DNA from: Betaproteobacteria bacterium RIFCSPLOWO2_12_FULL_62_13
Lineage (GTDB): Bacteria; Pseudomonadota; Gammaproteobacteria; Burkholderiales; SG8-41
Length of the DNA: 52,679 nt
Assembly: GCA_001771985.1 (NCBI GenBank)
Contig: MERG01000418.1
Coordinates: forward strand, 1 to 52,679
Reading direction: 5' to 3'
Both the position numbers and the translations under genes were made by a program. The notes under the pieces were generated by a model that saw only the letters and a list, made by a program, of their open reading frames with translations, was not told the DNA's origin and made no database searches. This document shows positions 43,388-47,156 of this stretch, piece by piece. Position 1 is the first letter of the stretch; each line of letters starts with the position of its first letter.

Positions 43388-44857
43388 CTAATGCCGGCTC
43401 GCCCGCCGCAGCTCCCGTAGGATCACCCGTGCGGCGTTGGCACCAGCCGCGCCCGCGATGCTCCCGCCCGGATGCGTGCCCGGGCCGCAGAGGTAGAGCC
43501 CCGCGATCGGCGTGCGGTAGCTTGCCCAACCGGGGATCGGCCGCATCCACAGCGCCTGGTCGAGCGCGAGCTCCGCGTGGTATGCCTGGCCCTCAGGAAA
43601 GCCGTACACCTCTTCCAAGTCGTGCGGCGAGAGCACGCTGCGCTCCACAGTCGCCGCGTCAAGGCCCGGCAGGTGCTGCGACAGCATTTCCACGACGAGG
43701 TTGCCGAGCGCGACGCAGCGCGCCTCGTCCCATTCCCCATCCGCAAGCGCGTATGGCGCGTACTGCACGTGCACCTCGACGCGATGCCGGCCGTCGGGGC
43801 TCGGTCCGTCGCTGCGCGCCTCGAGGTACGGTGCGCGCGAGACGCGCCCATACTTTGCGTCATCGTAGGCCCGCTCGATGTAGTCGAGAGACGGGGCCGC
43901 GATGAGCGTGGCAAACCCGGGCGCTCGCTCGAGCGTGAGCGTCACGCGGGCGACAACGCCGCGGCAGCGGATGTGCCGGACCGCGTGGACCACATCCGGG
44001 TCGAGCCATCCGGGATCGATAAGCCCGAGAAGCGTGCGCTTTGGATCGACGCCTGAGACGACGAGCGAGGCAGGAATCTCCTCCCCGCTCGCCAGCACGA
44101 CGCTGGCGACACGACCCTCGCGCACGGCAATCCGCGCGACCTCGGCCCCGCGGCGAATCTCGACGCCGGGCAGCTCCGCTAATACGCGCCCGAGGTTGGA
44201 GAGCGGCGGACGGAAGACCCCGGTCGGGCTCCCCACGTGATGATGCAGCAGGCGAAACACCGTGCCTCCGGAGCGCGGCCCCTGATGCAAATGCATGACG
44301 CCCGCCGCACCGAGGATGGCCTTGAGTGCATCGTTCTCGAACCAGTCGTCGAGAATATCCGCCACCGGCATCGGCAGCAGGCGCAGGAGGTCTTCGATCC
44401 CTTGCCTTCCGAGCCGCCGAACCCGGAGCCCGAGCCCCGCCAGTTGCGCGAGATCGCCGAGCGCGCGACCCATGAGATCCGGCGGCGGCGCCGTGTAGAG
44501 TGTTTCGAGCAGGCGCGCAAGCCGCCCCATGCGCTTGCAGAACGCGGGCCAGTTCGCCGCATCGCGCGGGCTCACTCGCCGGATCGCCTCGATCGAACGC
44601 GCCATGTTGTGCCACAACTCGAGGCGGCCGCCGTCAGGAAGCGGTGCGGTGGCCCACGGGTCGGGGCGATGGATCCTTAATCCGCGGCCTTCCAGCGCAA
44701 GTTCGCGCACGATTCGCGGCGGGATCCATCCGATGTCGGCCGGCGGATCGTGGCGCAAGCCGTCCTCATCGAGGACGAGCACGCGATTACCGGCGCGCGC
44801 GAGGTATTGCGCGCAAACGAGTTCATTCACGCCGGCACCGATTACGAGCGCGCTCAC
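43388..44857 (-). CDS. PYROXD2/CrtI-like oxidoreductase paralogue with degenerate dinucleotide-binding motif
   Basis: It is colinear with 45552..47156 (shared blocks DYIERAYDDAKYG, VQYAPY, GLYLCGPGTHPGG). Its N-terminus reads VIGAGVNELVCAQYLARAG and lacks the E..IGG motif. Confidence 0.8.
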   Translation of the reverse strand: MSALVIGAGVNELVCAQYLARAGNRVLVLDEDGLRHDPPADIGWIPPRIVRELALEGRGLRIHRPDPWATAPLPDGGRLELWHNMARSIEAIRRVSPRDAANWPAFCKRMGRLARLLETLYTAPPPDLMGRALGDLAQLAGLGLRVRRLGRQGIEDLLRLLPMPVADILDDWFENDALKAILGAAGVMHLHQGPRSGGTVFRLLHHHVGSPTGVFRPPLSNLGRVLAELPGVEIRRGAEVARIAVREGRVASVVLASGEEIPASLVVSGVDPKRTLLGLIDPGWLDPDVVHAVRHIRCRGVVARVTLTLERAPGFATLIAAPSLDYIERAYDDAKYGRVSRAPYLEARSDGPSPDGRHRVEVHVQYAPYALADGEWDEARCVALGNLVVEMLSQHLPGLDAATVERSVLSPHDLEEVYGFPEGQAYHAELALDQALWMRPIPGWASYRTPIAGLYLCGPGTHPGGSIAGAAGANAARVILRELRRASRH

Positions 44858-44903
44858 GCGTAGTCCCTCAACAAGAATGAATTACGATCGGCGAAAACCC
44901 GCA

Positions 44904-45326
44904 TCAATTCCCACTCGCGCCCGCGATCGAGGTAAGGCGCTCGAGGATGAGCCCGTGAAAATAGTCGGCCGGCGTCTGGAAGCGCCAGCCGAGATGGCGC
45001 TCGCAACTCGCGCAGAGGGCAATCTTCCAGGCGTAGCCCTTGAACCACGTGTGCGCTTCGGTGGCCTCGCCGATGGCGATGCAGCCGCCGGCCTCGTGGA
45101 AGCAGCCGATCCTGAAGGTATAACCGCCGGGATTGGTGCACTTGTGCTCGTGCCCGCCATTGACCTGGATTCGTTCGTCCTGGTGAGTGATGAGATGCCG
45201 GCAAAGCGCGCAGAACAGGCGTTTTTCTTTCTTCGCCTTGTCCTGGACGCTGGGGGCAATCTGACTCTGGCCCGCGGTTGCGCCGCGCCGGTCGAAGAAC
45301 ACCAGATCAGGAAACGCCAGCTCCAT
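44904..45326 (-). CDS. Bacterial cereblon-like CULT-domain protein
   Basis: Two CxxC pairs (CALC, CASC) and [25 protein letters not shown]. This matches the Magnetospirillum MsCI4 / human CRBN thalidomide-binding domain as I recall it, including all three cage Trp. 140 aa from ATG 45326. Confidence 0.85.
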   Translation of the reverse strand: [140 protein letters not shown]

Positions 45327-45342
45327 AGCAAGCTCCGAAGAA

Positions 45343-45389
45343 CCTATCTCAATAATAGACGCGTGATGCGTGCCTATTACTGAGATAGG
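45343..45389 (-). promoter_or_regulatory. 47-nt AT-rich palindrome 17 nt upstream of the cereblon-like gene
   Basis: CCTATCTCAATAATAG (45343-45358) pairs with CTATTACTGAGATAGG (45374-45389) at 15 of 16 positions. The 15-nt spacer ACGCGTGATGCGTGC is itself palindromic. Confidence 0.5.
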
Positions 45390-45551
45390 TCTTATGCAAG
45401 GATAGCTTCGGATCCGCCGCCTGGCCAGTTGATACGCGTCATGGCACCCAACTGTGCGGGCTTCGAGCCATCGGTCCGGCCTGAATGCCGCGCGGCACAG
45501 CACCGAGTTGCGATCGGCCTTCGAACCTCGTCGTCGGGGCTGGCGCTTGCC

Positions 45552-47156
45552 TCACGCGCCGGCCCGCAGAATCACCAGCGCGGCATTCCGCCCGGAGGCG
45601 CCCATCACTCCGCCGCCGGGGTGCGTCCCCGAGCCGCACTGGTAGAGCCCGCGGATGGGCGTCTTGTACTGGGCCCACGCGGGCACCGGCCGCAGGAAAA
45701 ACATCTGCTGCAACGTGAGCTCACCCTGGAAGATGTTCCCCTCGGATAAGCCCACGATGTGCTCGATGTCAGCCGGGGTGATCACCTGCCGGTGGAGGAT
45801 CGCCGACTTGATGTTGGGCGCATACTCGGCGAGGGTATCGATCACCGCATCACCGAACGCCTCGCGCCGCGCGTTGGTCCAGCCGCCGTTCACGTGATAC
45901 GGCGCGTACTGCACGAAGATCGACATGACATGCTTTCCCGGCGGCGCCATCGAGGGATCGATCATCGACGGAATAACGATGTCGAGGTACGGGCGGCGTG
46001 AGAAGTTCCCGTACTTGGCGTCGTCGTAGGCGCGCTCGAGGTAGTCTGTGCTCGGGCTGATGGAAATCGCGCCGCGCAGACATGCCCTGAGCCGGGTCGA
46101 AGCGTGCGGCCCCCTGCCCGGCAGGCAAGAGAAGTTCGGCAACTCCCCGAGCGCGAGGTTGACCTTGCCCGACGAGCCGCGGAACCTGTAGCGCTGGATC
46201 GCCTCGACGAAATCGCCGGGAAGATGCTTTTCTCCTGCAAGCTGGAGAAACGTGCGGCGCGGATCGGCGCCCGAGACCACGAGCTTCCCCCGGATCTCCT
46301 CGCCGCTCTCGAGCACGACGCCCGTGGCGCGGCCGTTCGCGAGCAGCACCTGTGCGACTGGCGCGTTCGTGCGGATCTCCGCGCCTGACGCCCGCGCCGC
46401 CCCCGCGATTGCCTCGGCTACCGACCCATTTCCGCCCTTGGCGAACCCCCAGGCGCGGAACACACCATCGATCTCGCCCATATAGTGGTGCAGCAGCACA
46501 TAGGCGGTGCCGGGCGAGCGCGGCCCGAGCAGCGTGCCAATGATGCCGCTCGCGGATTTCGTCGCTTTGAGCGCCTCCGTCTCGAACCATTCGTCGAGAT
46601 AATCGGCCGCGCTCATCGTGAGTAGCTTGCAGAGCGCGTGGAACTTCCTCGCGCCGAGGCCGCGCAAATGCCGGGTGAGCCGCGCGAGCCCGAGTAAGTC
46701 GCGCGGCGCGAGCGACCCCGGGTCGGGCGGCACCATGCCGAGCAGCGGCTTCACGGCGCGCGCCATCTCGTGCATGAGACGGCCGAACTCCTCAACGGCC
46801 TCCGCGTCGCGGAGCGAGTGGCGGGCCAACTCGCGGCGGTTCTGGTCGTGGTCGTTCCACTGCGCGAGATAGTCGCCATTCGGAAGCGGCGTCAGCGTGC
46901 TTTCGAGCGGCAGAATGTGCAGGCCGTGACGCGGCAGATCGAGATCGCGAATGATCTCCGGCCGCAGGAGGCTCACGACGTACGAAAATACGGAGAACTT
47001 GAAGCCGGGGAAGACTTCTTCGGTAACCGCCGCGCCCCCTATCTGCTCGCGCCGCTCGAGCACAAGCACCCGCCTCCCGGCGCGTGCGAGATATGCCGCG
47101 CACACCAGCCCGTTATGCCCGCCGCCGATTACGATTACGTCGTAGGGAGTAGCCAT
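45552..47156 (-). CDS. PYROXD2/CrtI-like NAD(P)/FAD-dependent oxidoreductase
   Basis: YDVIVIGGGHNGLVCAAYLARAG...LERREQIGGAA Rossmann motifs and C-terminal GLYQCGSGTHPGGGV. 534 aa. Confidence 0.88.
   Translation of the reverse strand: MATPYDVIVIGGGHNGLVCAAYLARAGRRVLVLERREQIGGAAVTEEVFPGFKFSVFSYVVSLLRPEIIRDLDLPRHGLHILPLESTLTPLPNGDYLAQWNDHDQNRRELARHSLRDAEAVEEFGRLMHEMARAVKPLLGMVPPDPGSLAPRDLLGLARLTRHLRGLGARKFHALCKLLTMSAADYLDEWFETEALKATKSASGIIGTLLGPRSPGTAYVLLHHYMGEIDGVFRAWGFAKGGNGSVAEAIAGAARASGAEIRTNAPVAQVLLANGRATGVVLESGEEIRGKLVVSGADPRRTFLQLAGEKHLPGDFVEAIQRYRFRGSSGKVNLALGELPNFSCLPGRGPHASTRLRACLRGAISISPSTDYLERAYDDAKYGNFSRRPYLDIVIPSMIDPSMAPPGKHVMSIFVQYAPYHVNGGWTNARREAFGDAVIDTLAEYAPNIKSAILHRQVITPADIEHIVGLSEGNIFQGELTLQQMFFLRPVPAWAQYKTPIRGLYQCGSGTHPGGGVMGASGRNAALVILRAGA

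Follow-up and report, generated by a model that had tools for sequence, protein, structure and literature searches.

A single-domain cereblon gene between two CrtI/PYROXD2-like oxidoreductase genes of soil Burkholderiales

Bacterial cereblons that consist of a single CULT domain are known as group I (Lupas et al. 2015, PMC4287342), and the closest known counterpart of the protein considered here is the cereblon isoform 4 of Magnetospirillum gryphiswaldense (MsCI4, MGR_0879; PDB 4V2Y and others), which is likewise a single-domain protein of ~125-140 amino acids (aa). In the literature that we searched, MsCI4 was used only as a surrogate for human cereblon (CRBN), and nothing was published on the physiological role of bacterial single-domain cereblons. 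Here, we analyzed a CULT gene carried by a 52,679-nucleotide (nt) stretch of DNA from Betaproteobacteria bacterium RIFCSPLOWO2_12_FULL_62_13 (contig MERG01000418.1, positions 1 to 52,679; this whole stretch is called the window below). The gene lies between two genes, oxB and oxA, that encode relatives of the CrtI and PYROXD2 oxidoreductases; neither this oxB-CULT-oxA context nor, more generally, the genomic context or function of bacterial CULT genes was described in the literature searched. If an operon context proved reproducible, it would supply candidate natural ligands to test. On balance, we favor the view that the gene encodes an MsCI4-type ligand receptor that was inserted once into an already existing gcvT-oxB-oxA operon, that is probably co-transcribed with oxA and that is an accessory rather than a core component; it is the evolutionary part of this view that we hold with considerable confidence.

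A single-domain cereblon with a conserved ligand cage

A six-frame list of open reading frames (ORFs) of the window reproduced all the coordinates and strands of the three genes given in an earlier note on this DNA, their order OxB-CULT-OxA and the gaps of 225 nt and 46 nt between them, and the cage peptide that the note quoted from the CULT protein is present in the translation. Because ~120 CULT homologues are 136-146 aa long, we placed the start of the CULT gene at the ATG at position 45326, and a longer ORF with a GTG start (44904-45503) was rejected on the same grounds.

Sequence searches of the PDB returned MsCI4 entries as the best matches to the CULT protein (E=8.6e-22 to 5e-20), followed by the thalidomide-binding domains of human and mouse CRBN (E ~5e-12), so that the protein does align with cereblon thalidomide-binding domains as the earlier note had anticipated. 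Its identity to MsCI4 is ~38-45% over ~95 residues. The MsCI4 cysteines have their counterparts in two CxxC pairs (C39/C42 and C105/C108), as expected of the same structural zinc site, and W94, W100 and W114 align column for column with the three cage tryptophans of MsCI4, as expected of an aromatic cage. A first difference is found at F116, which aligns with Tyr101 of MsCI4; since the CULT protein carries a phenylalanine at this position, the best-scoring MsCI4 entry was the Y101F mutant (4V32). In addition, a phenylalanine of MsCI4 is replaced in the CULT protein by His92, which corresponds to human His378, and the disordered N-terminal extension is longer and contains an invariant FD motif (F11-D12). 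In an alignment of 22 homologues reaching down to 55% identity, C39, C42, C105, C108, W94, W100, W114 and F116 were all invariant, indicating that the CULT protein is under selection.

Structural comparisons gave a consistent picture. An AlphaFold2 model of the protein had predicted local distance difference test scores of 90-96 over residues 40-130, with a beta-tent core at residues 36-127 and ~33 N-terminal residues that are predicted to be disordered and are not hydrophobic. When this model was compared with the PDB using Foldseek, the top 50 matches were all MsCI4 or CRBN, as expected of a beta-tent fold; matches to MsCI4 had template modeling (TM) scores, normalized to the target, of 0.85-0.93 and root-mean-square deviations of 1.0-1.9 A, and included complexes with thalidomide, deoxyuridine and valerolactam. 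The only Pfam match was a weak one, to Yippee-Mis18. The thalidomide-binding domain of human and other vertebrate CRBN is a homologous beta-tent in which the cage and the zinc ligands are conserved (TM score normalized to the query ~0.65-0.67), but CRBN also has a Lon-like N-terminal domain, a DDB1-binding region and a ubiquitin-ligase context, whereas the protein of the window is a stand-alone bacterial protein without these. Consisting of a CULT domain only, with no Lon domain and no signal peptide, it has the architecture of group I (PMC4287342).

Taken together, these data show that the gene encodes a cytoplasmic single-domain cereblon of the MsCI4 type, with a zinc-stabilized beta-tent and a cage made of three tryptophans and a phenylalanine, and they uphold its earlier identification as a bona fide cereblon domain with both CxxC pairs and the aromatic cage intact. 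The protein is a further member of a known family, whose relatives are named 'cereblon family protein' by NCBI. By analogy with the MsCI4 and CRBN structures, its cage should bind a cyclic imide, a lactam or a uracil-type moiety.

Distribution of the CULT gene and of the gcvT-oxB-oxA operon

A CULT pattern scan of one genome per GTDB species returned 411 stretches, of which the best 80 were taken with 8-kb flanks; more CULT loci were added through contig look-ups, and OxA and OxB were sought by tblastn. The relatives in this survey and in the OxA survey below are uncultured metagenome-assembled genomes (MAGs) or metagenome contigs, and the CULT and OxA trees are neighbor-joining (NJ) trees without usable support values. 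Eleven of the 91 CULT loci showed an oxB-CULT-oxA or a CULT-oxA arrangement (the window, L002, L003, L005-L008, L085, L086, L089 and L090). Their CULT proteins are at least 65% identical to that of the window, and those that are named all come from uncultured 'Burkholderiales bacterium' MAGs (soil). None of the remaining 80 loci, 61 of which have at least 2 kb on both sides, has a CrtI-like neighbor; their CULT proteins are 39-61% identical to that of the window and span Acidiferrobacterales/Sulfuricaulis, Methylococcales, Spirochaetota, Desulfobacterota, Myxococcota, Nitrospinota and Rhodospirillales.

Since the CULT-OxA order repeats in 10 loci other than the window, the arrangement is not due to chance. 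The linkage is nevertheless not seen in independent CULT lineages: the CULT tree unites the Ox-linked sequences in one clade, placed either as sister to the FIST-linked sequences described below or within them, which indicates that the linkage arose once. The search for recurrent PYROXD2/CrtI-like neighbors that the earlier note had suggested, and by which it had proposed to judge whether the linkage is conserved in other genomes, therefore gave a divided answer, with conservation inside one soil Burkholderiales clade and absence from the 80 other CULT loci. A single origin limits what the context says about CULT function, and the oxidoreductase context narrows the hypothesis to one testable clade.

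We also searched for a universal CULT partner by clustering the ORFs found within 3.5 kb of CULT in 90 loci, and obtained only lineage-specific clusters. By context, a FIST gene accompanies CULT in 17 loci, ClpB in 7-8 and Ox genes in 11, and 55 loci have none of these. In the 17 loci with FIST, which are of the Sulfuricaulis/Acidiferrobacterales type (L001:6874-8423, L087:6875-8423, L088, L009-L025 and others), 9-43 nt separate CULT from the upstream FIST-domain gene (PF08495/PF10442), which has the same strand. In eukaryotic E3 ligases, each of the two domains serves as a substrate receptor (FIST in FBXO22, CULT in CRBN). We rejected this adjacency as independent evidence, because all these loci share a wider synteny (CorA...VIT1/AhpC/SCO1/cox) and form one lineage block. 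In 7-8 loci, mainly of spirochaetes (L081:5086-8282; L048, L057, L062, L070, L071, L077), CULT is preceded at a distance of 73-160 nt by a clpB gene of the same strand, which is canonical (TIGR03346, 1319 bits against a cutoff of 1232). As a clue to a proteolysis adaptor this adjacency was also rejected, the neighbor being a canonical ClpB disaggregase and the arrangement being confined to one spirochaete-centered clade. These results show that bacterial CULT genes have no universal genomic partner and that their contexts (FIST, ClpB or oxB/oxA) are lineage-specific.

Such findings bear on the possibility that CULT is a protein-directed reader, recognizing for example C-terminal cyclic imides on damaged proteins as CRBN does, and that its position reflects hitch-hiking on an expressed operon. 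To our knowledge, bacteria lack the CRL4 machinery, and the CULT protein has no Lon-like or other effector domain, which both speak against such a reader, as does the confinement of the ClpB adjacency to one clade. A reader would be in line with our finding no cross-lineage conserved CULT partner and with the bona fide clpB that directly precedes CULT in the spirochaete clade, and C-terminal cyclic imides are reported in a preprint to be the physiological CRBN ligands. We regard this explanation as unlikely.

We then turned to the oxidoreductase side. A metagenome scan with the OxA alignment gave more than 521 stretches, of which the best 80 (50-83% identity) were combined with earlier loci into a set of 86. 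OxB directly abuts OxA, without CULT, in 66 of these 86 loci (gaps of ~0-25 nt), and a gene of the GCV_T (aminomethyltransferase) fold lies immediately upstream of the abutting oxB wherever the contig extends so far. CULT stands between OxB and OxA in 9 loci, a TctC/Bug-family solute-binding gene occupies the same junction in 2 (L101:3759-4859, minus strand; L104:3500-4552, plus strand), OxA has no OxB upstream in 6, and a contig end cuts the remaining 3. OxB/OxA pairs do not, then, generally carry CULT, and the 66 CULT-less adjacent loci indicate that CULT is an add-on to an older gcvT-oxB-oxA operon: gcvT-oxB-oxA is probably the ancestral unit and CULT a lineage-restricted insertion. The TctC genes show that the oxB-oxA junction tolerates unrelated insertions. 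All the CULT-bearing loci fall into one shallow, poorly resolved OxA subclade, which also holds CULT-less adjacent loci (L095, L098, L100, L116 and L161). A bootstrapped NJ tree of this subclade was star-like and did not separate one gain followed by losses from several gains.

Units of a gcvT-like gene, oxB and oxA with near-zero gaps were seen in soil metagenomes (L095, L098, L100 and L108-L170; for example L100:2235-6464). The OxA proteins nearest to that of the window (76-77% identity) were in turn found in loci that have neither OxB nor CULT (L092-L094, L096, L097 and L102) and in which oxA stands behind CoA-transferase III, TctC or ABC-binding-protein genes; there, OxA can either exist detached from OxB or be present as a second copy.

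Looking more closely at the junctions, OxA directly follows CULT on the same strand in all 11 linked loci, with gaps of -4 to ~250 nt, the CULT stop overlapping the OxA start by 4 nt in L002. In L006, a DUF2339 membrane-protein gene takes the place of OxB and the order CULT-OxA-GDSL is kept, while in the window the upstream gcvT, OxC and PfkB genes of the relatives are gone and oxB-CULT-oxA is kept. The 225-nt gap between OxB and CULT in the window compares with 42-101 nt in the relatives. In 7 of 8 clade members, the CULT start is preceded at ~20 nt by a motif that reads GGATCC..GCTATCCT or GGATCC..GCTATGCT (consensus GGATCC..RGCTATGCTYG; ~45391-45412 in the window, L005:7972-7990, and also in L006, L007, L008, L085 and L089), which L006 keeps without having OxB. 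This CTATGCT-containing motif might be a promoter element serving CULT-oxA; a promoter and terminator scan of the 42.5-48 kb region gave counts at the level of shuffled sequence, that is, of chance.

Between this motif and the CULT start codon, the window has an insertion of ~50 nt that contains an AT-rich inverted repeat with 22-nt arms that are 86% complementary and a 5-nt loop and lies 16 nt upstream of the CULT start. The repeat occurs once in the window, where 0.02 matches would be expected by chance, and no such palindrome was found in any of 170 loci, which makes it an insertion specific to the window rather than a conserved operator. In the window itself, it could form a hairpin or an operator in the CULT leader.

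These observations show that the position of CULT goes back to one ancestral event. In a clade of soil Burkholderiales, a CULT gene whose nearest kin are the FIST-linked CULTs of the Sulfuricaulis/Acidiferrobacterales type came to lie between oxB and oxA, and it has since stayed directly upstream of oxA on the same strand. Judging from strand and spacing, it would be co-transcribed with oxA and with the GDSL hydrolase gene that follows, either by read-through from oxB or from the CTATGCT-containing motif, as an accessory and presumably dispensable addition to the operon.

OxB, OxA and possible roles of the CULT protein

The earlier note had described the two enzymes as PYROXD2/CrtI-like flavoenzyme paralogues. 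Paralogy is borne out, OxA and OxB being 41% identical over ~526 columns (E=2e-106), and so is the likeness to CrtI and PYROXD2; less certain is whether OxA is a normal flavoenzyme. OxB has the N-terminus VIVIGGGHNGLV...ERREQIGGAAV, with the canonical GxGxxG and GG motifs of a dinucleotide-binding site, and thus shares with CrtI/CrtO/PYROXD2-type oxidoreductases the N-terminal dinucleotide-binding motif, the GG motif and the C-terminal motif for flavin adenine dinucleotide (FAD). It matches Amino_oxidase (1.2e-20) and NAD_binding_8 (4e-13) in Pfam, CrtI (4DGK, 4.7e-17) as its best PDB relative and CrtO as its best NCBIfam model, and its orthologues in other loci are 70-85% identical. Since all the scores are far below the equivalog cutoffs (CrtO: 324 bits for OxB and 176 bits for OxA against 1000; crtI_fam: 126 and 65 against 238), neither protein is a carotenoid enzyme by the NCBIfam models. 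In this family, the pair also differs from CrtI-type enzymes in that oxB and oxA occur together behind a GcvT-like gene and outside carotenoid clusters. OxB is a CrtI/PYROXD2-like flavoprotein, as judged by its motifs and matches.

OxA looks different. Its N-terminus (44720-44857) reads GAGVNELV, a GxGxxE in which the third glycine of the dinucleotide-binding motif is replaced by a glutamate, and ~14 residues that include the GG motif are missing after beta-2. The GxGxxE form predominates among the 120 listed OxA orthologues (P0121-P0240), a minority having a glycine or an alanine at this position; OxA orthologues made up at least 120 clusters at 67% identity or more. Its only Pfam match is Amino_oxidase (2e-10), and its match to CrtI in the PDB is confined to the C-terminal 100 residues, the N-terminus remaining unmatched. 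Because the region of the C-terminal FAD motif is kept, FAD binding by OxA is uncertain rather than excluded. Sequence features of this kind suggest that OxA, its FAD site being degenerate, may serve OxB as a partner, either as a pseudo-enzyme or as a regulatory subunit. A third paralogue, OxC, with ~43% identity to OxB and a full GxGxxG, was observed upstream of gcvT in three relatives (L005:3576-5141, L008:1723-3294 and L085:2686-4305) and is absent from the window.

The GCV_T protein of the operon best matches the tetrahydrofolate (THF)-binding C-terminal domain of trimethylamine N-oxide (TMAO) demethylase, then GcvT and SoxA, all below cutoff. In humans, the PYROXD2 locus is a metabolite quantitative trait locus for trimethylamine and dimethylamine (PMC3169529). 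From these two pieces of evidence, it is a reasonable analogy to see gcvT-oxB-oxA as a folate-linked system for the oxidation of N-methyl amines, in which OxB would be the catalytic flavoprotein and OxA its partner with the degenerate FAD site. The known THF-linked N-demethylating oxidases (heterotetrameric sarcosine oxidase SoxA/SoxB and the TMAO demethylase Tdm) likewise have a GcvT-like folate-binding protein encoded together with a flavoprotein, as in the relatives of the window; they differ in that their flavoproteins belong to the DAO family and not to the CrtI family, and the window lacks gcvT, so that the likeness is one of analogy only. Nothing relevant to a cluster of gcvT with a phytoene dehydrogenase was found in the literature searched. 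This widespread and uncharacterized operon, with a PYROXD2-like pair of which one subunit is degenerate, is of interest in its own right.

What, then, might CULT do in this operon? The earlier note had taken the tight linkage as a sign of a small-molecule module that senses or processes a cyclic imide or a dihydropyrimidine-like compound. In such a module, a cyclic imide, a dihydropyrimidine or a lactam that OxB/OxA oxidize would be sensed, delivered or sequestered by the cage, a relationship that would hold for this clade only. In ~10 loci the three genes share one strand and tight spacing although the proteins have diverged to 63-84% identity, the CULT-OxA adjacency outlasts the loss of OxB in L006 and that of gcvT in the window, and the 4-nt overlap in L002 points the same way, as do the selection seen on the cage and zinc residues and the existence of MsCI4 structures with valerolactam, deoxyuridine and glutarimides. 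Weighing more heavily with us, the linkage has a single origin and is absent from 80 other CULT loci, and the oxB-oxA junction also accepts TctC genes, which are unrelated; with 66 of the 86 OxA loci also lacking CULT, the enzymes do not need CULT, nor does CULT need the enzymes. A dedicated module of this sort is therefore only a tentative possibility. The same holds for the broader proposal that CULT binds a substrate, product or effector of the operon's pathway in this clade, which we find possible but doubtful. That CULT has an unrelated ligand-receptor role and merely shares the transcription unit strikes us as an evenly balanced proposition. Finally, CULT could have been recruited as a ligand-binding partner of OxA, its cage recognizing a cyclic lactam or imide that is an intermediate or effector of the amine-oxidizing pathway. 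We see this as improbable, but if true it would give a first genomic handle on the natural ligand and physiological role of bacterial CULT proteins, and a clue to the chemistry of PYROXD2.

Several points weigh against our preferred view of a receptor inserted once, co-transcribed with oxA and accessory to the operon. In the window, the coupling of CULT to oxB could be broken by the 225-nt gap with its hairpin-forming insertion. Resolution within the OxA subclade is so poor that one gain followed by several losses cannot be told apart from spread by recombination. Moreover, a real functional link would likewise be in keeping with a CULT-OxA adjacency that persisted when the upstream genes were rearranged on two independent occasions, and with the insertion of CULT exactly between the genes of a probable heteromer.

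The gene that follows oxA also touches on this question. GDSL orthologues 66-77% identical to that of the window follow OxA in L002, L005-L008, L085, L089, L091, L098 and L100. With its N-terminus of the lipoprotein type (...FALLAGCGE...), the hydrolase is probably an exported protein, and this speaks against a common cytoplasmic pathway even though its gene is tightly linked to oxA in the relatives.

Neighboring features and toxin-antitoxin pairs

The features of the region are collected in Table 1.

Table 1. Features around the CULT gene, with positions in the window
Feature	Position	Strand	Length	Assignment and remarks
GDSL/SGNH hydrolase	41922-42545	-		PF13472, 4e-25
vapBC	vapB 42655-42891, vapC 42908-43321	+		PF09957, PF01850, TIGR00028; convergent with OxA
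OxA	43388-44857	-	489 aa	Diverged OxB paralogue
CULT gene	44904-45326	-	140 aa	Single-domain bacterial cereblon / thalidomide-binding-domain homologue
OxB-CULT intergenic region	45327-45551	-	225 nt	Clade-conserved motif and palindromic insertion
Inverted repeat	45342-45390	not assigned		Arms 45342-45363 and 45369-45390
OxB	45552-47156	-	534 aa	CrtI/CrtO/PYROXD2-like FAD oxidoreductase, canonical GxGxxG and GG motif
parE-family toxin and phd/yefM antitoxin	parE 47217-47498, phd/yefM 47495-47797	-		PF05016, PF02604

The trio is flanked on both sides by toxin-antitoxin (TA) pairs, as previously noted, with all four genes above the curated family thresholds (PF09957, 24.8 against 23.4; TIGR00028, 145 against 73.6; PF05016, 36.7 against 23; PF02604, 71.6 against 29.8). 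The pair that had been labeled relE/phd consists of a ParE_toxin protein, for which relE is loosely right since PF05016 belongs to the RelE/ParE superfamily, and of a Phd/YefM antitoxin. Both pairs are canonical type II TA loci (VapBC and ParE/Phd(YefM)) in their two-gene architecture, sizes and domains, and nothing about them is unusual.

The earlier note had seen in these pairs the signature of a mobile or accessory islet carrying the trio, an interpretation that did not survive comparison with the relatives. TA pairs do stand on both sides, the ParE/Phd pair is unique to the window and coincides with a break in synteny, and the GC content of the 43-47 kb region (0.63-0.67) is slightly above that of the flanks (0.60-0.61). 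However, L002, L085, L005 and L008 carry the trio in the same neighborhood without these TA pairs, and vapBC orthologues are found at the same position in four other loci. In the relatives, the trio sits in a conserved chromosomal neighborhood (GDSL lipoprotein, MFS, DUF2889 and HMG-CoA lyase/liu genes on one side; gcvT, cytochrome c, Metallophos and PfkB on the other), which is kept whether TA genes are present or not. Annotation of the trio and its flanks revealed no integrase or transposase, while tRNA genes and direct repeats were not scanned for in the window. An islet delimited by the two pairs is thus very improbable.

The two pairs instead have separate histories. The vapBC orthologues, 75-87% identical, occupy the same site between OxA and GDSL in the same orientation (L007:3047-3704, L089:10046-10702, L090:3015-3671 and L111:1148-1811), showing that vapBC is an old resident of this intergenic site, and their divergence resembles that of the neighboring genes. 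No ParE/Phd orthologue was found in the 170 fetched loci, and the pair lies at the point where synteny with the relatives ends; it marks a local rearrangement and not the edge of a transferable unit. These data show that the two TA pairs reside in, or were inserted into, their intergenic sites independently of each other and do not form the boundaries of an islet. In L089 and L090, vapB is split over two frames and may be decaying.

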